Below, in pieces: positions 1-5,869 of a stretch of 5,869 bases of DNA. The notes below the pieces were generated by a model. The model ran no database searches. It was given only the letters and a program-made list of their open reading frames with translations, and had not been told where the DNA came from. The DNA comes from Nanopusillaceae archaeon. GTDB lineage: Archaea > Nanobdellota > Nanobdellia > Nanobdellales > Nanobdellaceae. The position numbers and the translations under genes were made by a program. Position 1 is the first letter of the stretch; each line of letters starts with the position of its first letter. The stretch covers positions 1 through 5,869 of the forward strand of contig JBMFJD010000017.1 in assembly GCA_049974095.1 (NCBI GenBank), read 5' to 3'.

Positions 1-152
1 GAAATTATAAAGATATTAGTAATATAATAAAAGATGAATATTATAATAAGTATGATGTAGATATATCAAAGAAGATATTAGATTTAGATAATGAATATAA
101 AGATATAGTAGAGGATTTATATAATATTGATATATTGAAATTTTTAAATTAG
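1..152 (+). CDS. 3' end of a CDS truncated by the window start (first full codon at nt 3). Probably a fourth member of the tandem paralog family downstream.
   Basis: Frame 3 is open from nt 3 to TAG at 150-152: NYKDISNIIKDEYYNKYDVDISKKILDLDNEYKDIVEDLYNIDILKFLN*. It shares DISKK, an acidic D/Y/E-rich tail and a short hydrophobic C-terminus with paralog C (FDISKKLNEY...YDNIDIDKLLI*). The same TAG + T-run + GTTTTGATG junction follows it. The ORF track omits it because it has no start in the window. Confidence 0.55.
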   Translation, partial: NYKDISNIIKDEYYNKYDVDISKKILDLDNEYKDIVEDLYNIDILKFLN

Positions 153-168
153 TTTTTTGGTTTTGATG
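150..168 (+). repeat. Gene-junction unit A: TAG stop + T6 + GG + GTTTTGATG. This is an orphan gene start; only a 9-codon mini-ORF follows.
   Basis: Sequence is TAGTTTTTTGGTTTTGATG, with the exact 9-mer at 160-168. The ATG at 166 opens only MFFKRKNKY* (166-195). Confidence 0.6.
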
Positions 169-227
169 TTTTTCAAAAGAAAAAATAAATATTAAAAAAG
201 TTATACTATAAAAAAGTTTTTTCATGG

Positions 228-279
228 AAATGTTTATTTATTGACAAATATTTATAAATATTTTCTATAACATTATTTT
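228..279 (+). promoter_or_regulatory. Promoter-like AT-rich spacer upstream of CDS 280-729 (TATA-box-like or sigma70-like elements).
   Basis: Elements: AAATGTTTAT (228-237, also at 3783-3792); AAATATTTATAA (246-257, also at 2049-2060); TTTATAAATA (251-260) beginning 29 nt before the ATG at 280. An alternative reading is TTGACA (241-246), a 19-nt spacer, then TATAAC (266-271). Either reading puts the transcription start at or next to the ATG, giving a leaderless mRNA. There is no SD. AT-rich DNA produces such matches by chance. Confidence 0.35.
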
Positions 280-729
280 ATGGCGTTGGAAATAACAAAG
301 GAAATAATAGATGCATTAAATGAAGAGGTAGAGACGGTAGGGGATAAAATGAGAAATATAGAAATAGCAACAATAAAGATTGTAGATAACAAAGTTTTGG
401 AAGTACAACTTTCAAATAAACAATATCCTTTTAGGGTAGCGTTAACTGATGAGACGGAATTATTAATATCAAATAAAGAATTAATAAATATATGGGTTAA
501 ATACATGAAAGAGATGTTTAGGGAGTATGAGGTAAGTTATTATAATTATAGTGATGAGGATGGGGATAATTTATATGTAAGGTTTACGGTATATAAAAAA
601 TTCAATGATAAACTTATGAATATGATAACCTGGGATTTTCAAATTAGGAATAAAAAAAGTATTAGCATACCATCAGATTTATTGAAAAGGTTTGTTTATG
701 AAAAGTTTAATATTATTTTTGTTTATTAG
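280..729 (+). CDS. Hypothetical protein, 149 aa, no recognisable domain.
   Basis: ORF track 280..729. It has an ATG start, the same purine-rich, C-poor codon usage as its neighbours, and a TAG stop embedded in junction unit B. I recognised no catalytic or binding motif. Confidence 0.7.
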   Translation: MALEITKEIIDALNEEVETVGDKMRNIEIATIKIVDNKVLEVQLSNKQYPFRVALTDETELLISNKELINIWVKYMKEMFREYEVSYYNYSDEDGDNLYVRFTVYKKFNDKLMNMITWDFQIRNKKSISIPSDLLKRFVYEKFNIIFVY

Positions 730-749
730 TTTTTTTTATTGTTTTGATG
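727..749 (+). repeat. Gene-junction unit B: TAG stop + T8 + ATT + GTTTTGATG.
   Basis: Sequence is TAGTTTTTTTTATTGTTTTGATG. TAG at 727-729 ends the upstream CDS and ATG at 747-749 starts the next. Confidence 0.65.
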
Positions 750-1592
750 AATGCAAAAAGTAAATTGCTAGGGGAAATAAAATATTATTTAGAGAAATTT
801 AGGAAAAGGGGATTAGAGGTTAATATAAGGGAATGGAAAACAATGATGGAAATAGAGATTAATTATATTAACTTTGAAAAACAAAAAGAAATTATTAATG
901 AACTTATAAAAGTACATGAAATAAAGAAAAAATATTTAAGAAATAAGGAATTAGAGTATTTTAATAGATTATTAGAGGATTATTTACGTATTAGGATAAC
1001 ACATTATTTTATTAATAAAAAATTGAATGAATTGAAAAGGGTAAGAGATGGGTTAAAAAGTTTGTATGAAAATTATGATGAAAATGAATATTTGGAACAA
1101 TTAAAAAGCGAAATAGAAATTAAATTTAATAGATTGCTAGAGGATATAAAGGATATTGAAAATAAGGAAAAAGAAATAAAGAGATTAATAGAGAAATATT
1201 TAAAGTATTTGAATAAGGAAATTGAATATGATGAGGAAATAAAAGGGATTGAGGAATGGATGAATAAGGGAGGATTTAAGAATAGTAAATTAATGAGGAT
1301 TATAAAAGATAAAATAAAGAGTATATTAAATAATAAAAATATTAAGTTATTTTGGTTTGGTAATGGTATGATTTTAGTAATGGTTTATGAAAATAAATAT
1401 TTCTATAGAGGATGGATTTATGAAAATAATAAGTTTTATGTTATTGATTTAAGAAATAATAAGTATATGGATGTAAGTAATTTTATAGGTAATAGGTATG
1501 GGGGAAGAATATTAAAAATGCTGGGGGATGATAGAGATAGAGATATAATTTATGATATAAGGGAAAGGTCAATATATGATTTTTTAGTTTAG
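747..1592 (+). CDS. Paralog A of an uncharacterised three-part family: N-terminal alpha/beta region, central K/E/L-rich helical region, C-terminal beta-rich region.
   Basis: ORF track 744..1592 starts at TTG. I prefer the ATG at 747 supplied by the junction 9-mer. Full-length similarity to 2090-2962 and 2976-3773: NFEKQKEII; LNELKRVRDGLKSLYENYDENEYLEQL; KYLKYLNKEIEYDEEI; NKFYVIDLRNNKYMDVS. I recognised no known domain. Confidence 0.85.
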   Translation: MNAKSKLLGEIKYYLEKFRKRGLEVNIREWKTMMEIEINYINFEKQKEIINELIKVHEIKKKYLRNKELEYFNRLLEDYLRIRITHYFINKKLNELKRVRDGLKSLYENYDENEYLEQLKSEIEIKFNRLLEDIKDIENKEKEIKRLIEKYLKYLNKEIEYDEEIKGIEEWMNKGGFKNSKLMRIIKDKIKSILNNKNIKLFWFGNGMILVMVYENKYFYRGWIYENNKFYVIDLRNNKYMDVSNFIGNRYGGRILKMLGDDRDRDIIYDIRERSIYDFLV

Positions 1593-1606
1593 TTTTTGTT
1601 TTGATG
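1590..1606 (+). repeat. Gene-junction unit C: TAG stop + T5 + GTTTTGATG.
   Basis: Sequence is TAGTTTTTGTTTTGATG. TAG at 1590-1592 ends paralog A and ATG at 1604-1606 starts the next CDS. Confidence 0.65.
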
Positions 1607-2014
1607 GCGGAAAACAACAATTCGGATTTGGTTTTTAAATTGAGAAATGGAAAATTAGAAGAGAAAGATATAGCGGAATTAGTAAAAAGGGCATTAGAAG
1701 AAAGAAATGAGGAAAGTTATTATTTATTGAAAGTTAGGGAATGGGACGAAGTATATGAAAGGTATGAAAGTATAAAAGAAGTAAAAATTATTTATGGAAA
1801 TGCGGAAAAGATATTAATAAATGAGGAATATAATTATGATGAGAAAAGAAAAGAAAGAGAATATATAATAATTCCAAAAGATAGATTGGTTATATTATTG
1901 GATAGAGAATATGTATATTCAGAAAGTAAAGGGGAAAGGGAGGGGCTTACGGTTTTTGTATTTACTGGCGATGGCTGGCATTCTCATACAGTCTCTGAAA
2001 TAAATTATTTCTAA
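1604..2014 (+). CDS. Hypothetical protein, about 136 aa, no recognisable domain.
   Basis: ORF track 1601..2014 starts at TTG; the ATG is at 1604. It has the same compositional signature as its neighbours and a TAA stop followed by a doubled T-run/TAG unit. The C-terminus GLTVFVFTGDGWHSHTVSEINYF looks beta-rich. No motif recognised. Confidence 0.7.
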   Translation: MAENNNSDLVFKLRNGKLEEKDIAELVKRALEERNEESYYLLKVREWDEVYERYESIKEVKIIYGNAEKILINEEYNYDEKRKEREYIIIPKDRLVILLDREYVYSESKGEREGLTVFVFTGDGWHSHTVSEINYF

Positions 2015-2039
2015 TTTTTTAGTTTTTTTAGTTTTGATG
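2012..2039 (+). repeat. Gene-junction unit D: TAA stop + T6 + AG + T7 + A + GTTTTGATG. This is an orphan gene start; only a 7-codon mini-ORF follows.
   Basis: Sequence is TAATTTTTTAGTTTTTTTAGTTTTGATG, with the exact 9-mer at 2031-2039. The ATG at 2037 opens only MIFNKYL* (2037-2060). Confidence 0.6.
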
Positions 2040-2040
2040 A

Positions 2041-2083
2041 TTTTCAATAAATATTTATAAGGTTTTAATATAATTATATTATA
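2041..2083 (+). promoter_or_regulatory. Promoter-like AT-rich spacer upstream of paralog B.
   Basis: AAATATTTATAA (2049-2060) is identical to 246-257. TTTATAAGG starts at 2054, 30 nt before G2084 of the next GTTTTGATG. A second TATA-like run, TTTTAATATAAT, lies at 2063-2074. An alternative sigma70-like reading is TTGATG (2034-2039), a 16-nt spacer, then TATAAG (2056-2061). Confidence 0.35.
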
Positions 2084-2092
2084 GTTTTGATG
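2082..2092 (+). repeat. Gene-start unit E: TAGTTTTGATG, with no upstream CDS stop attached.
   Basis: The exact 9-mer is at 2084-2092. ATG at 2090-2092 starts paralog B. Confidence 0.6.
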
Positions 2093-2962
2093 GAAGAGGA
2101 AGAAAAAATATTAAAAGAAATAAAAGAAATAGTAGAAAGGTTTAGGGATAGAGGGTTAAAGATAGAGATGGAAGAAAAGGATAATATGATAAGTATACTT
2201 ATGACATATGAAAATTTTGAAAAACAAAGGGAGATAATAGGGAGTATTTCAAAAAAGTATAAAATAAGGTTAAATAGGGTAAGGAAAGAATATTTAAAAT
2301 ATGTTAAAAAGCTTTTAGAGGAACCTAAAACTATAATAGTTTATTATGTTTTAGCATATAAGAATAAAGATAATTTATTAGAGGTAAAGGAATTTTTAGA
2401 GGAAAGTTATAATAAGGATGATGAAAATTATTATTTACAATTGTTAAAGGAAAAATTAGAAAATGAATTTAATAATTTTGTTAAAGAAAATATAAAACCA
2501 TATTTAGAAAGAGAGGAAAAACAATATGCATTATTAAAGAAATATTTAAAGTATTTAAATAAAGAAGTTGATTATAATGAGGAAATAGAAAATATTGAAT
2601 CTTTATTAAATAGGGTTTATTATAAAGGGGATTATCATTTAAGTGATGATATATATAAACTATATGCATTAATAAGGAAAAAAGTAAGGATGGTTATTAA
2701 TCAAAAAAATATTAAATATATTAAAATTGATCATGGTATTTTACTTATTATGACATATAAATACAATTTTAGTGATGAATCAGATATTATATATGAAAAA
2801 AATAAGTTTTACTTAATTGATTTTAGGAATAATAAGGTTATGGATATTAGCAATACTATAGAAAAAGAATATACGGGAGGGGTATTAGAGGTTATTGATG
2901 AGAATAATTTATATATATTGGATGATTTACGTAAAAGGAATATATACGAGTTATTAATTTAG
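2090..2962 (+). CDS. Paralog B of the uncharacterised family.
   Basis: ORF track 2087..2962 starts at TTG; the ATG is at 2090. Shared blocks with A and C: NFEKQREII; KYLKYLNKEVDYNEEI; NKFYLIDFRNNKVMDIS; C-terminal NIYELLI*. Confidence 0.85.
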   Translation: MEEEEKILKEIKEIVERFRDRGLKIEMEEKDNMISILMTYENFEKQREIIGSISKKYKIRLNRVRKEYLKYVKKLLEEPKTIIVYYVLAYKNKDNLLEVKEFLEESYNKDDENYYLQLLKEKLENEFNNFVKENIKPYLEREEKQYALLKKYLKYLNKEVDYNEEIENIESLLNRVYYKGDYHLSDDIYKLYALIRKKVRMVINQKNIKYIKIDHGILLIMTYKYNFSDESDIIYEKNKFYLIDFRNNKVMDISNTIEKEYTGGVLEVIDENNLYILDDLRKRNIYELLI

Positions 2963-2978
2963 TTTTATTGTTTTGATG
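2960..2978 (+). repeat. Gene-junction unit F: TAG stop + T4 + ATT + GTTTTGATG.
   Basis: Sequence is TAGTTTTATTGTTTTGATG. TAG at 2960-2962 ends paralog B and ATG at 2976-2978 starts paralog C. Confidence 0.65.
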
Positions 2979-3773
2979 GATAGTTTATTATGGGAGATTA
3001 GGATTTTGTTAGAAAAATTAGTTAAGGATAAGGGATTATATGTGTATGAAAAAGAAAAGGTAGGGGATTCATGGATAGATATCAATATATATTATACAAA
3101 TGTTAAAAAACAAAAAGAGATGGTAGAGGAATTATTAAGAAAAAATAATATTGATAAAAGGTATTATAGATTTTTTAGTGATTTATTGGATAAAAGTTAT
3201 AAAATTGAAATTCTTAGTGATTACGTAAGTAAAAGAATGAATGAATTAAGAAAATTAAGGGATAAATTGAAAGAAATATATGAAAATTTTAGGGAGGATG
3301 ATTATTTAAGAAAATTAGAGGATAATATAAATGAGGAATTTAAATATGATTTAGAGGATTTAAATAATTATTTAAAAGAAGAAAAATTATATTTGGATTA
3401 TTTAAATGGAAAAATTGATTATAATAAGGATATAAAAGATTTTGAGGATGATTTAATTTTTAGTGATGAATTAAAATATAAATCATGGATCTATAGAAAA
3501 ATAAAAAGATATATTAAGAAATTATTGAATAGTAGGAAATTTAAAATTATATGGATTAAAAGAGGGTTTGTTTTAGTAATATTATATAAAGATAAAGGGG
3601 ATTTTGGAAATGGTAAACATGTATATTTTTATAATAAGTTTTACTTAATTGATTTGAGAAATAATAAAATATTTGATATAAGTAAAAAATTGAATGAATA
3701 TATTGATGAGTTTAGGGATGATGATATATTTGATATGTATGATAATATAGATATAGATAAATTATTAATATAG
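2976..3773 (+). CDS. Paralog C of the uncharacterised family.
   Basis: ORF track 2973..3773 starts at TTG; the ATG is at 2976. Shared blocks: NVKKQKEMV; MNELRKLRDKLKEIYENFREDDYLRKL; LYLDYLNGKIDYNKDI; NKFYLIDLRNNKIFDIS; C-terminal IDKLLI*. The translated protein has no Ala, Pro or Cys. Confidence 0.85.
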   Translation: MDSLLWEIRILLEKLVKDKGLYVYEKEKVGDSWIDINIYYTNVKKQKEMVEELLRKNNIDKRYYRFFSDLLDKSYKIEILSDYVSKRMNELRKLRDKLKEIYENFREDDYLRKLEDNINEEFKYDLEDLNNYLKEEKLYLDYLNGKIDYNKDIKDFEDDLIFSDELKYKSWIYRKIKRYIKKLLNSRKFKIIWIKRGFVLVILYKDKGDFGNGKHVYFYNKFYLIDLRNNKIFDISKKLNEYIDEFRDDDIFDMYDNIDIDKLLI

Positions 3774-3819
3774 GTTTTTGATAAATGTTTATATGTGTTT
3801 TTTATAATATATAATATAA
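3774..3819 (+). promoter_or_regulatory. Promoter-like AT-rich spacer upstream of the AAA+ ATPase gene.
   Basis: A degenerate junction, TAGGTTTTTGATAAATG, lies at 3771-3787. AAATGTTTAT (3783-3792) is identical to 228-237. TTTATATG (3788-3795) starts 32 nt before G3820. TTTATAATAT lies at 3801-3810. An alternative sigma70-like reading is TTGATA (3778-3783), a 19-nt spacer, then TATAAT (3803-3808). Confidence 0.35.
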
Positions 3820-3828
3820 GTTTTGATG
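3818..3828 (+). repeat. Gene-start unit G: AAGTTTTGATG.
   Basis: The exact 9-mer is at 3820-3828. ATG at 3826-3828 starts the ATPase CDS. Confidence 0.6.
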
Positions 3829-4950
3829 ACGGAAAAACAAAGTAATTTATTAAGAATATTTGAGAGAGCTAGAAAAGAAAAGGTAGCAATAGGATTGTTT
3901 GGGGGTTATGGAATAGGAAAGAGTAGTTTGATTTATCAATATTCATTAATGAAAAGTATGGAATCTGGTAGAGAATTAAAAATATGGCATGAATTGACGG
4001 AGAGAGAGAAAAAAGAGATATTAGAAAATCCTGAAAAGTACTTTATAGTAGTAGATATTAAGGGTAGCTTAATATCTTTGGATAATTTAGTTATACCAAT
4101 ACCTGTAAATGATGGGATAAAATGGGAGGTACCTTTATGGATGAAAGTATTAGAAAATGAGAAAAGTATGGGGATATTATTTATTGATGAGGTTAATATG
4201 ACATTACCATCATTACAAAGTTTATTATTTGAATTAGTATTTCAAAGAAAGTTGGGAGAAAGTACAATAAAGGGGGATGTATTAATAATTACTGCGGGAA
4301 ATGATCTAGAAAGCAATAATGTAGCTAAAGAATTACCACAACCACTTATAAATAGAATGATATTTATTAATGCAAATGAAATATTTGACATTGATGCATG
4401 GTTAGAATATGCAAAAAATGTTAATATTGATAATAGAATAATAGGATGGGTATTATTTAATAATAGAAATATTAGTTATTCTAATGATGTTATGAAACAA
4501 TCAACCACACCTAGATCTTTGGAAATGTTAAGTAAGATGATTAATGGGGAAAAAGATATGAATTATATAAGAATGGTAGCATATGGATTATTAGAACCTA
4601 ATGATGCATTACAATTTACTGCATTTATAGAATTATATGAAAAGTTTAGTGATATAGATAAGTATATTGATAATATTGAATTATTATATGATCTTAAGGA
4701 AGATGAGAGGATAATAATTATGATGAAAATAACAGAAAGATATATTAATGATAAGTTAACATTAGAGAAATATTATAATATATTGGATGGGTTAAGTAAT
4801 ATAAGTAAAATGTTAGTGGTATTTTCATTAAGGTATTTGAAATATCAAAATAGTGATAAGTTTAAGATATTGTTAGATAAGGTAATAAAAGAAAATGGTA
4901 AGGTTTACAATTTGTTAGGGCAAATGTTAGAATTTGAAAATAAATTATGA
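3826..4950 (+). CDS. MoxR-like (AAA_5 / CbbQ-NorQ-GvpN type) AAA+ ATPase.
   Basis: Walker A GGYGIGKS (3901-3924). Walker B ILFIDE (4174-4191). Sensor-1-like LIITAGN (Asn at 4300-4302). PLINRM follows at the position of the MoxR-type ALLDRF arginine motif. The single AAA+ core is followed by a helical C-terminal region of about 190 aa. The gene sits directly upstream of, and overlaps, a VWA-type partner, which is the classic MoxR arrangement. ORF track 3823..4950 starts at TTG. Confidence 0.85.
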   Translation: MTEKQSNLLRIFERARKEKVAIGLFGGYGIGKSSLIYQYSLMKSMESGRELKIWHELTEREKKEILENPEKYFIVVDIKGSLISLDNLVIPIPVNDGIKWEVPLWMKVLENEKSMGILFIDEVNMTLPSLQSLLFELVFQRKLGESTIKGDVLIITAGNDLESNNVAKELPQPLINRMIFINANEIFDIDAWLEYAKNVNIDNRIIGWVLFNNRNISYSNDVMKQSTTPRSLEMLSKMINGEKDMNYIRMVAYGLLEPNDALQFTAFIELYEKFSDIDKYIDNIELLYDLKEDERIIIMMKITERYINDKLTLEKYYNILDGLSNISKMLVVFSLRYLKYQNSDKFKILLDKVIKENGKVYNLLGQMLEFENKL

Positions 4951-5869
4951 TGGATGAGGAATTATTAAAGTTAGTAATTACTAAAAATTTTCCATTGTTT
5001 GCACCAATATTAAGTAAGATAAGAATTAAAGAAAGTAGGGAAATATCATATGTGGCGGGATTGAATTATAAAGAAAAAACAATATATATTAATCCTGATG
5101 AATTCAATGAATATATTAGTAAAGAAAAAATGTTTATAATATCACATGAAATAATGCATTATCTATTAGTACATGATCCTGAAGCATTGAGGGATAAAAA
5201 TTTATTATTAGTTTTTAATTTAGTTAGGGATGCCCAAATAAATCATATATTACATAAACAAATGAAATATATGGCAAGGGGGGTTATAACATTGGATATA
5301 TTAGAAAGGATGAGCGAAAAAGTAAAAGAATACTTTGAGGGGGATGTTGAGAAATTCCTTAATGAGGATGAGTATTTTATTGTTAAATTGATGTTAGAGG
5401 ATAAGAAAGTTAATAATATGGTTAATAAGATGATTGATGTATTAGAAAATAATAGTGATAACCTAGATGAAACTAGTGAAAAAATTAGAGATATATTAAA
5501 GGAGAATGGGGTTAATATAGATATTGATGAAATTAGTAAGAATATAGTAAAAGAATATAATGAAAGTAAGGAATTGGGAGAAATGAGCGATGAGGAAATA
5601 AAAGAAATGGTTAATGAGGGTATGGAAATGTTAGAGAAAGGTATGTTATTAAGTAAAATGCTTAATCCTGAAAGTAAGGAATTAGATATAAAGTTAAGGA
5701 AAAAGAGGATTAAATGGAAAGAAGCATTAAGGTATATTATGAGTGAGATAGGGGCATTGGCAACTGATTATGATTTAACAAAATTGGATAAAAAAGCATG
5801 GGTATTAAAGACATATGTACCTGGGGTTATAAAGGAAAATGAAAGTATTAATGTAATAATTGGTATAGA
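4947..5869 (+). CDS. Putative zinc metallopeptidase-domain / VWA-like domain protein (DUF2201_N + DUF2201-type architecture), 3'-truncated by the window end.
   Basis: I translated this frame by hand from ATG 4947 (or ATG 4950) to the window end and found no stop: MMDEELLKLVITKNFPLFAPILSKIRIKESREISYVAGLNYKEKTIYINPDEFNEYISKEKMFIISHEIMHYLLVHDPEAL... The HEIMH motif is at 5145-5159, with a third His at 5172-5174 (HExxHxxxxH). The layout matches the putative metallopeptidase domain usually fused to a VWA-like domain: a hydrophobic FPLFA... helix, then '(T)IYINPDEF', then HExxH. The final residues ...YVPGVIKENESINVIIGI(D/E) look like the first beta-strand leading into a MIDAS DxSxS motif just beyond the window. 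The start overlaps the ATPase stop (ATGA / TGATG). Confidence 0.8.
   Translation, partial: MMDEELLKLVITKNFPLFAPILSKIRIKESREISYVAGLNYKEKTIYINPDEFNEYISKEKMFIISHEIMHYLLVHDPEALRDKNLLLVFNLVRDAQINHILHKQMKYMARGVITLDILERMSEKVKEYFEGDVEKFLNEDEYFIVKLMLEDKKVNNMVNKMIDVLENNSDNLDETSEKIRDILKENGVNIDIDEISKNIVKEYNESKELGEMSDEEIKEMVNEGMEMLEKGMLLSKMLNPESKELDIKLRKKRIKWKEALRYIMSEIGALATDYDLTKLDKKAWVLKTYVPGVIKENESINVIIGI

Follow-up and report, generated by a model that had tools for sequence, protein, structure and literature searches.

An exact nine-base sequence carrying the start codon joins the cassettes of a strain-variable gene array in a nanoarchaeon

Introduction

What is the role of an exact nine-base sequence that recurs at the starts of co-oriented genes of an archaeon, including non-homologous genes? 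The question is raised by a 5869-bp stretch of DNA, the window of this study, which is the complete contig of a metagenome-assembled genome (MAG) labelled Nanopusillaceae archaeon at NCBI (proteins ACP5GJ_04390/04395/04400). The organism is a tiny hot-spring archaeon of the Nanopusillaceae (Nanoarchaeota). The window encodes three paralogs of one protein family (the P family; P1, P2, and P3), the small genes B and C, a MoxR-like AAA ATPase, and a DUF2201/VWA protein. The nine-mer, GTTTTGATG, carries the start codon and is the invariant joint between co-oriented cassettes in a tandem array that varies between strains. A literature search found no paper describing this motif or array.

Results

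The nine-mer is exact, sharp-edged, and confined to the array

Seven exact copies of GTTTTGATG start at positions 160, 741, 1598, 2031, 2084, 2970, and 3820 of the window, all on the plus strand. The expected number is 0.10, and none of 200 dinucleotide shuffles reached seven. The window contains no minus-strand copies and no additional copies with one mismatch; a degenerate eighth copy, TAGGTTTTTGATAAATG, spans positions 3771-3787. The recount agrees with the first-pass annotation of the window, which had listed seven exact copies, all on the plus strand and none on the minus strand, against about 0.1 expected. Five of the copies supply the ATG of open reading frames (ORFs) of 281, 136, 290, 265, and 374 codons, and those at 160 and 2031 are followed only by ORFs of 9 and 7 codons. 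The annotation had recognized this division, but its description of the motif as marking seven gene starts has to be amended to five gene starts and two copies without a long ORF. The motif touches and contains the ATG in all its copies, and the distance from one to the other is always 0.

A near-identical locus is present on the sister contig L001, which comprises the first 17,177 bp of the 28,986-bp hot-spring contig Ga0453806_32047 from the Joint Genome Institute (JGI); positions 726-5869 of the window are 99.94% identical to it. L001 contains eleven exact copies of the motif, all on the plus strand and all within 436-6055, with none in the other 11 kb. The motif precedes seven of the eight array genes (all but B), as opposed to none of the 13 other called genes on either strand. 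GTTTTGATG is array-specific and is not a general gene-start signal; the wider comparison with gene starts that had been suggested as a check, run on the 17 kb of L001, finds copies in the array only and not throughout the replicon. The earlier statement that no copy lies inside a gene holds for the window, but the exact copies at 436 and 546 of L001 are inside a called small gene. The edges of the motif are sharp. All nine positions are identical in 11 of the 11 copies of L001, position -1 in 5, and position +9 in 6. The 35-nt segments that combine a junction with the preceding gene end are about 71% identical to each other, and their last 9 nt are 100% identical. The same MAG contains a second array on a 59.9-kb contig (ACP5GJ_02430-02450).

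The motif completes a uniform junction between genes

The four short junctions of the window, all on the plus strand, consist of a TAG stop codon, T4-T8, GG, ATT or nothing, and the motif. Counted from TAG through ATG, their length is 17-23 nt, as had been described earlier, and their stop-to-start spacers measure 11-17 nt. The first follows the end of a P0-like gene at 150..168 (TAG, T6, GG, GTTTTGATG); its copy, at 160-168, opens only the 9-codon ORF and forms the 5' end of promoter module 1. The other three are promoter-less and lie between B and P1 at 727..749 (TAG, T8, ATT, GTTTTGATG at 741-749), between P1 and C at 1590..1606 (TAG, T5, GTTTTGATG at 1598-1606), and between P2 and P3 at 2960..2978 (TAG, T4, ATT, GTTTTGATG at 2970-2978). 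Two longer plus-strand junctions join the end of a transcription unit to a promoter module. The one at 2012..2092, which includes promoter module 2, reads TAA, T6, AG, T7, A, GTTTTGATG (2031-2039), AATATTTATAAG, GTTTTGATG (2084-2092), and the one at 3771..3828, which includes promoter module 3, reads TAG, GTTTTTGATAAATG (3774-3787), AATGTTTATATG, GTTTTGATG (3820-3828). The ORF-less copy at 160 is located within an inverted repeat of 13-14 nt, TTTTTTGGTTTTGA (tgtttt) TCAAAAGAAAAAA, at 153-192 of the window. None of the other junctions forms a local hairpin, and the z-score of the fold as a whole is unremarkable.

The first T-runs after the six stop codons of the window are T6, T8, T5, T6, T4, and T5 (the last after one G), in keeping with the run of at least 5 T expected directly behind a gene at an intrinsic archaeal terminator, and the unit ends contain two to four T-runs. 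We rejected the T-runs as strong terminators, since runs of T5 or longer are not depleted inside genes (10 observed versus 12.1 expected). TAG seems to be part of the junction signature, because it ends six of the seven array genes but only one of the 13 others on the contig, where TAA dominates (Fisher p = 0.0012). Read-through of the TAG to the TGA of the joint was also rejected, as only two of the four short junctions have the UAG and the UGA in one reading frame.

Promoters are few, and the motif is tied to the start codon

A promoter position matrix was built from 20 local leaderless promoters outside the array (consensus AATGTTTATAAA). In 16 of these 20 training promoters, a TTTATAAA/TTTAAAWW box starts 29-31 nt before the ATG, which is the leaderless geometry and the local norm, and local internal operon genes overlap the previous gene or start 1-8 nt after it. 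A score of 5 is reached by 24-30% of random 70-nt windows, which sets the noise level. The TATA 8-mer of gene B starts at -29 from the ATG (score 9.3; B recognition element (BRE)/TATA box AATATTTATAAA at 247..258), in leaderless geometry, that of P2 at -36 (score 8.5; BRE/TATA box AATATTTATAAG at 2050-2061), that of the ATPase at -38 (score 6.5; BRE/TATA box AATGTTTATATG at 3784-3795), all on the plus strand, and that of the gene P0 of L001 at -40 (score 6.9). Nothing above 4.6 precedes P1, C, P3, the additional gene Px of L001, or the P2-like gene of the assembly L005. On this promoter map, the window most likely holds three transcription units, B-P1-C, P2-P3, and ATPase-VWA, with P1, C, and P3 as promoter-less internal cistrons. 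Separate promoters for every gene of this array were rejected, because at the internal junctions the matrix finds none of the BRE/TATA boxes expected about 26-30 nt upstream of a transcription start.

The promoter modules of the array are all homologous and about 60 nt long. From the TATA 8-mer to the G of the motif, the spacing is 30, 32, and 34 nt in the long-class modules of P2, the ATPase, and L001 P0; in the short-class module of L006 it is 23 nt. With such variable spacing, the motif is not a fixed initiator. The insertions and deletions in the modules shift the motif relative to the TATA box but never relative to the ATG. Thus, the motif is tied to the start codon and not to the promoter. 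Given the local distance of about 29 nt from TATA box to transcription start, the predicted start at promoter-proximal copies lies 0-5 nt upstream of the G, and a leader of 6-11 nt containing GUUUUG is plausible. In the two short-class modules (n = 2) the motif is relaxed, to TTTTATG in gene B, which is motif-free, and to ATTTTGATG in L006. The TATA box of this class is 29 nt before the ATG, so the six bases in front of the ATG would not be transcribed. The L006 gene has an in-frame ATG 9 nt upstream of the motif ATG (ATGGTTTTGATGG, L006 1136-1147). Because this upstream ATG is exactly 29 nt after the start of the TATA box, the gene may begin leaderless there, in which case the motif would be read as Val-Leu-Met.

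Strains differ by whole cassettes with breakpoints in the joint

The order of the array is B-P1-C-P2-P3 in the window, B-Px-P1-C-P2-P3 in L001 and L004, and B-P1-P2' in L005, and the array genes of L006 have other neighbours. The 853-bp Px cassette between B and P1 is present in L001 and in the independent Logan assembly L004 (99.96% identical), and B is joined directly to P1 in the window and in the independent ENA assembly L005; each arrangement is therefore seen in two assemblies. The Px insertion or deletion is bounded by two copies of TAGT7-8ATTGTTTTGATG and corresponds to site 727..749 of the window. In L005, gene C and promoter module 2 are missing, and P1 is joined to the P2-like gene at the 10-nt sequence GTTTTGATGG. 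The left part of that junction has stayed with the upstream cassette, so the exchange point is within about 10 nt. The P2-like gene itself (1068-1943) is a chimera. Its 5' part is 71% like P2, whereas over the final 160 nt it is 88% like P3, and the two parts meet in the conserved NKFYLIDLRNN region. Paralogs therefore recombine inside the coding sequence too, and the chimera indicates unequal crossing-over between them. These haplotypes, which differ by whole cassettes with breakpoints in the joint, give direct support to one of the roles proposed by the first-pass annotation, that of a conserved joint for cassette exchange.

Px and the unit made up of C plus promoter module 2 are each flanked by exact nine-mers on both sides, and so is promoter module 2 on its own; these are direct repeats like those of a 9-bp target-site duplication. 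The upstream ends of the other modules carry the variants GTTTTTGATAAATG, GTTTTTGATAAACATG, and GTTTTTGAAAAAAATG. Among the ORF-less copies upstream of promoters, two are exact, three are degenerate, and two are absent, whereas about 16 gene-start copies are exact and one is a variant; the ORF-less copies are therefore less constrained than those at gene starts. The motif is also carried by non-homologous genes (C, the ATPase, and a new gene of L006). A recombination mosaic between strains, as read from the alignment, is seen in gene B, where positions 402-704 are about 9% divergent from L001 1773-2075, while window positions 1-401 are identical and the downstream sequence is 99.94% identical.

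One copy of the motif appears to have been written into a new place. At 436-444 of L001, an exact GTTTTGATG lies inside a conserved small gene that reads AATTCTAAAA at this site in L006, L007, and L011. The copy amounts to five changes within nine bases, with length and reading frame kept and the flanks identical. Five directed changes as independent neutral mutations are not credible. A permutation test of mismatch clustering was not significant for this patch (p = 0.08-0.24), and the argument rests on the changes yielding the exact nine-mer, not on their clustering. The patch, which comes from one assembly, looks like short-patch templated copying. Short-patch gene conversion has been documented in Sulfolobus, a hyperthermophilic archaeon (PMC4471258), which is a precedent and not a proof. 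Exact copies at L001 546-554 and L006 165-173 are located in a conserved small gene and represent a similar case.

A second array has its own joint

A more distant relative of the locus, L010, is a contig from JGI 3300005801 in which the gene order P-ATPase-VWA is kept and the ATPase is 43% identical to that of the window. L010 contains AATTTTTGATG 16 times on one strand, compared with 0.04 expected. Fifteen of these copies precede 15 consecutive co-oriented genes of several unrelated small families, the broader pattern TTTTTGATG adds a 16th gene start, and one copy (409) follows a gene end without a long ORF. The spacers of L010 measure 6-54 nt and are built from T5-7/A2-4 units, six of them being exactly 30 nt long, and the minimal junction is TAA-TTTTTG-ATG. 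Every stop codon of the L010 array is TAA.

The motif is absent from the homologous P and ATPase genes of L007, L011, and L012 (64-69% ATPase identity), L009 (72%), and L013 (47%), which have ordinary leaderless promoters or tight junctions. The lone exception is a single GTTTTGATG in L007 and L011 that starts a decayed small gene. As the corresponding genes of these intermediate relatives are motif-free, the shared core TTTTGATG is confined to the two arrays and is not dictated by the gene family. The joint of L010 is an independent analogue of the GTTTTGATG joint.

Unrelated proteins of both arrays (about 14 genes of L010 and the P genes of the window) share hydrophobic C-termini (...LLI, ...KLI, ...LSI, ...LLV), and the DNA before the stop codon (YTAATTTAA / TTATTARTTTAG) is therefore semi-conserved too. 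A different kind of uniform gene start occurs in the related lineage of L007, where at least five small genes between 700 and 4400 (among those at 705, 1830, 2485, 3087, 3466, and 4361) share near-identical promoters of about 33 nt, (T)TTATAAACATT(T/A)(T/C)GTACAATAAATATT-ATG. The GTAC-centred box between their TATA box and the start may be a common operator. L011 (JAGDVT010000029.1) was deposited in a Candidatus Paceibacter bin, which belongs to the bacterial candidate phyla radiation. It is collinear with the nanoarchaeal L007, has the same archaeal leaderless promoters, and encodes an ATPase of 64% identity; it is probably mis-binned.

The joint is neither a Shine-Dalgarno site nor a structured RNA

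Nanopusillus acidilobi is listed among Shine-Dalgarno (SD)-scarce species, with a 16S rRNA 3' end, GATCTAGTTAATTCC, that lacks CCUCC, and Nanopusillus-type archaea were reported to have lost the anti-SD sequence altogether (PMC10783764). We calculated duplexes of six junctions with the N. acidilobi 16S tail GAUCUAGUUAAUUCC (PMC10783764, S4 table) or with the canonical tail, both standing in for the 16S of the MAG itself. The energies were -1.3 to -3.7 kcal/mol with the former and -2.4 to -5.1 kcal/mol with the latter. The five window junctions paired no better than shuffled sequences with either tail, and the L010 junction was about 1.6 standard deviations better than shuffles with the canonical tail. 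An SD site is rejected, as the pairing of the window junctions does not exceed that of shuffles and the motif runs into the ATG without the spacer of about 4-10 nt that an SD element has; the earlier verdict that the motif is not an SD element was right. Folding of the junction RNAs gave no significant structure (z-scores -0.7 to +1.9), and Rfam has no matches in the window or L010. We therefore rejected a known RNA family or structured element.

Gene content of the locus

All genes of the window are on the plus strand. Unit 1 begins with gene B (280..729), which encodes 149 residues of no known family, continues with the internal cistron P1 (747..1592), and ends with gene C (1604..2014; 136 residues). 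Unit 2 consists of P2 (2090..2962; 290 residues) and the internal, last cistron P3 (2976..3773; 265 residues). The MoxR-like AAA ATPase (3826..4950; 374 residues, phrog_1297) has no homology to the P family, yet it has the same joint GTTTTGATG. The start of the DUF2201_N metallopeptidase-like/VWA gene (4947..5869, cut by the window end) overlaps the ATPase stop codon (ATGATG), an ordinary tight coupling without the motif. L001 further encodes MCM, a thermopsin, and an AAA protein. Cytosine is scarce on the coding strand (228 of 5869 bases, 3.9%), with a GC skew of +0.5 to +0.9 and a G+C content of 22%.

The P family is tiny: in a set of 5.8 billion proteins it makes up 8 clusters, every one of them from this lineage. 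Its members are 265-290 residues long, five are encoded on L001, and the paralogs are 36-48% identical. AlphaFold models are confident (predicted local distance difference test score of 90 for the whole protein and the C-terminal domain alike) and show an N-terminal alpha/beta unit, a long helix, and then a helix with a six-strand beta-meander. Comparison of the models with solved structures gave no significant match (all E > 0.2). Many of the weak matches are Sm/LSm chains, at non-significant values (E 0.4-2, template modelling score 0.2-0.35, root-mean-square deviation 7-9 A), and the P family has no LSM match in Pfam. We therefore rejected the idea that P proteins bind the U-rich joint in the manner of Sm proteins.

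Gene C has a match to phrog_10536 (E = 4e-21) and, at about 32% identity, a homolog in gp01, which comes first among the genes, in terminal position, in the Sulfolobus rudiviruses SIRV5-10 from Yellowstone (L014 1658-1996). This likeness suggests gene exchange between the nanoarchaeal locus and viruses of the likely host community. Gene C also matches the KH protein aDim2p PH1566 weakly (E = 0.008), without the GXXG loop. A defence system was rejected, as PADLOC matches none.

Discussion

Based on the anatomy of the junctions, the promoter map, and the variation between strains, a role of the joint can be proposed. We favour, tentatively and at somewhat less than an even chance, the reading in which GTTTTGATG is the joint of a recombining cassette array and serves at the same time as an SD-less restart or short-leader context for translation, a function that we infer from the sequence comparisons. 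In all gene-start copies GUUUUG lies directly 5' of the AUG, either as part of the predicted leader after a promoter module or as the end of an 11-17-nt U-rich spacer. Such a U-rich, unstructured joint would let the ribosome start, or restart after termination, at an internal AUG that is neither 5'-terminal nor overlapping a stop codon. With the joint as the start context, any cassette would therefore be expressed irrespective of its place in the array, whether it follows another cassette or a promoter module. The identity of the joint and its sharp edges would be kept by copying at the DNA level, through unequal crossing-over and short-patch conversion, and the same copying would add, delete, and reshuffle cassettes and promoter modules at the joints.

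Several observations weigh against this proposal. The motif is array-specific, whereas a signal acting at the level of the ribosome should not be, and other internal cistrons are motif-free. Relatives with 47-72% ATPase identity have homologous P and ATPase genes without it. Known translation contexts are degenerate, and exactness in 11 of 11 or 16 of 17 copies is unusual. The ORF-less copies (160 and 2031 in the window, 436 and 546 in L001, and 409 in L010) start no long gene. The homology at the crossovers, only 10-19 nt, is short by the standards of ordinary homologous recombination. The 17 + 14 kb examined yielded no recombinase gene, no binding factor was found, and the patch at L001:436 comes from a single assembly. 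Because of the array specificity, the exactness, the short crossover homology, and the missing recombinase and binding factor, the rival explanations keep real weight.

We consider it doubtful that the exact nine-mer (AATTTTTGATG in L010) is a new kind of archaeal gene-start signal read by a dedicated factor, a judgement that covers two forms of the idea together. In one form, the motif would be a punctuation or initiation element that gives each cistron of an SD-less polycistronic RNA a 5'-proximal GUUUUGAUG and drives internal initiation. In the other, it would be a start-codon-donating recombination site that plugs ATG-less, promoter-less cassettes into an operon.

Taken purely as DNA, the nine-mer could be a dedicated joint, the target of a site-specific or transposition-like process, which cassettes lacking a promoter and an ATG of their own would duplicate upon entry, so that the joint would donate the start codon, and whose role in expression would be a by-product. 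Gene cassettes and promoter module 2 are indeed bounded by exact, sharp-edged nine-mers in the same orientation, the presence or absence of a cassette has both breakpoints in the joint, and the exchange in L005 took place within 10 nt or less. The array specificity of the motif, the different fixed joint of L010, and the new exact copy at L001:436 would also follow. However, the L001:436 copy arose without an insertion, and the P2/P3 chimera of L005 speaks for a general exchange driven by homology. No integrase, transposase, or HUH protein was found in Pfam and PHROG scans of the called genes of L001 (17 kb) or in the PHROG scan of 10 of the 19 genes of L010 (14 kb), and no terminal inverted repeats or attC-like hairpins flank the cassettes. 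Integron attC sites, transposon ends, and a recombinase were rejected, as none was found in the scanned regions. We regard a dedicated DNA joint as unlikely.

The array shares with those of integrons the co-oriented, mostly promoter-less cassettes, the few upstream promoters, the strain-variable content and order, and a joint at each boundary. It differs in that no IntI gene was found in the scanned regions, in that attC sites are hairpins of 50-150 bp whereas the spacers here are 11-17 nt of unstructured T-rich DNA, and in that the integron core GTTRRRY is not fitted by GTTTTGA and the joint here contains the start codon. It behaves like an integron-style cassette array, but IntI, attC hairpins, and GTTRRRY, which define an integron, were not found in the regions scanned.

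A joint that acts in the RNA was weighed as well. An endonuclease or a sequence-specific RNA-binding protein might recognize the junction and either cut or cap the polycistron, so that every array mRNA begins with GUUUUGAUG... and the message before it acquires its 3' end, or control the translation of all array genes together. This would explain together the internal junctions, the promoter-proximal copies, and the ORF-less copies at the 3' ends of units. Exact, sharp-edged sequences of 9-11 nt are typical of recognition by a factor, and their restriction to the array would fit an array-specific one. The consensus of Sm sites is RAU4-6GR. The L010 joint AAUUUUUGA fits it, which we treat only as a lead, whereas GUUUUGA of the window lacks the A. 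No candidate factor was found, however; the Sm/LSm matches of the P family are non-significant, and the KH match of gene C is weak and lacks the loop noted above. Kinetoplastid polypyrimidine tracts, chloroplast PPR10-type sites, and mitochondrial tRNA punctuation share with the joint that one intercistronic element could set both ends, but the analogy is one of logic and not of components. We consider RNA punctuation quite unlikely.

The favoured restart context can also be compared with known termination-reinitiation systems (AUGA, UGAUG, and the termination upstream ribosomal binding site (TURBS) of caliciviruses). As in those systems, promoter-less, SD-less cistrons start shortly after a stop codon, and the joint contains UGAUG. 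In contrast to them, the upstream ORF is closed by a UAG 11-17 nt earlier instead of by the joint's own UGA, the junctions lack an element complementary to rRNA, and the same contigs couple other genes by overlaps or spacers of 1-8 nt without the motif. The junctions thus resemble stop-restart coupling, but with a longer and sequence-exact spacer. Restart coupling and RNA processing had both been among the roles listed in the first-pass annotation, and either may apply.

It is improbable that every junction combines a terminator with a promoter of its own and that the G of the motif is the +1 of an mRNA with a 6-nt leader, as the first-pass annotation had proposed among its roles. The part of this proposal that concerns promoter-proximal copies is plausible, given the predicted start 0-5 nt before the G, although the TATA spacing of 30-34 nt argues against a fixed initiator there. 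These copies share with archaeal leaderless and short-leader promoters the position 30-32 nt (three copies of the window) or 34 nt (the L001 P0 copy) after a good BRE/TATA and the predicted leader of 6-11 nt; they differ in that most copies are promoter-less and the distance to the TATA box varies while that to the ATG is fixed. For the other junctions, the proposal can draw on the T4-T8 after every array stop codon and on weak AATAT(A/T) elements, derived from conserved C-terminal N-I codons, 27-33 nt upstream of most internal copies. The six L010 junctions of exactly 30 nt carry a TATA-like TTTTTTAAAT that spans -30 to -21 relative to the ATG, close to the usual place of a TATA box, and that may be one; its matrix score, 3.5 at -28, is at noise level. 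The internal junctions score at most 3.4-4.6, also noise level, and junctions of 6-20 nt cannot hold a TATA box. For the short junctions the proposal is thus not supported, and T5 and longer runs are not avoided in coding sequence.

The annotation had further likened the junctions to the signals of viruses with their own transcription machinery. The gene-end and gene-start signals of Mononegavirales and the TTTTTNT and TAAATG elements of poxviruses do likewise combine, in a uniform junction, a T/U-run where one gene ends with a conserved element that adjoins the next start codon. The locus described here, however, is cellular or plasmid-like archaeal DNA, and the two are alike in form alone. 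Neither the window nor 17 of the 29 kb of the L001 contig yielded a virus-encoded polymerase or a viral hallmark gene, and the only matches were to an ATPase, a VWA protein, an SIRV gp01-like gene, and a clamp-loader-like AAA protein. IMG/VR contains no relatives of the P family or the ATPase and no such arrays, and the matches to the junction pattern in its viral contigs are single and chance-like. On these grounds we rejected a viral origin, and the analogy is unsupported.

A passive remnant, left without present function by tandem duplication of an ancestral promoter-leader-gene unit, is strongly disfavoured. In its favour, the P genes are paralogous, the promoter modules share homology, and the loss of a promoter between two flanking copies could produce a short junction. 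However, identity is only 36-48% between the paralogs and about 70% in the flanks, and eleven neutral nine-mers would not stay identical over such divergence; the divergence of the proteins also excludes a very recent amplification of the whole array. Moreover, the motif is found on non-homologous genes, L010 has an independent exact joint, and exact copies have been newly created. A DNA operator bound by a transcription factor that co-regulates the array is highly improbable. The motif is exact and fixed in orientation, and in promoter modules it occupies the stretch from TATA box to ATG, which is the site of action of archaeal repressors; at least five promoters of L007 have another conserved box, (T/C)GTACAA, in this position. 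The motif is not palindromic, however, its spacing to the TATA box varies, and most copies are at promoter-less internal junctions with nothing to control.

The GTTTTGATG joint fixes the true start codons of the array genes and flags the array in fragmented metagenome bins. For the study of SD-less archaeal initiation at internal or leadered AUGs, an array of 5-15 consecutive promoter-less cistrons is a compact and mutable test substrate. The locus shows how the reduced genome of a symbiont keeps fast-changing, lineage-specific genes, with whole cassettes and promoter modules gained, lost, and swapped at a nine-base joint, and in one case, at L001:436, the joint itself appears to have been written into a new place.

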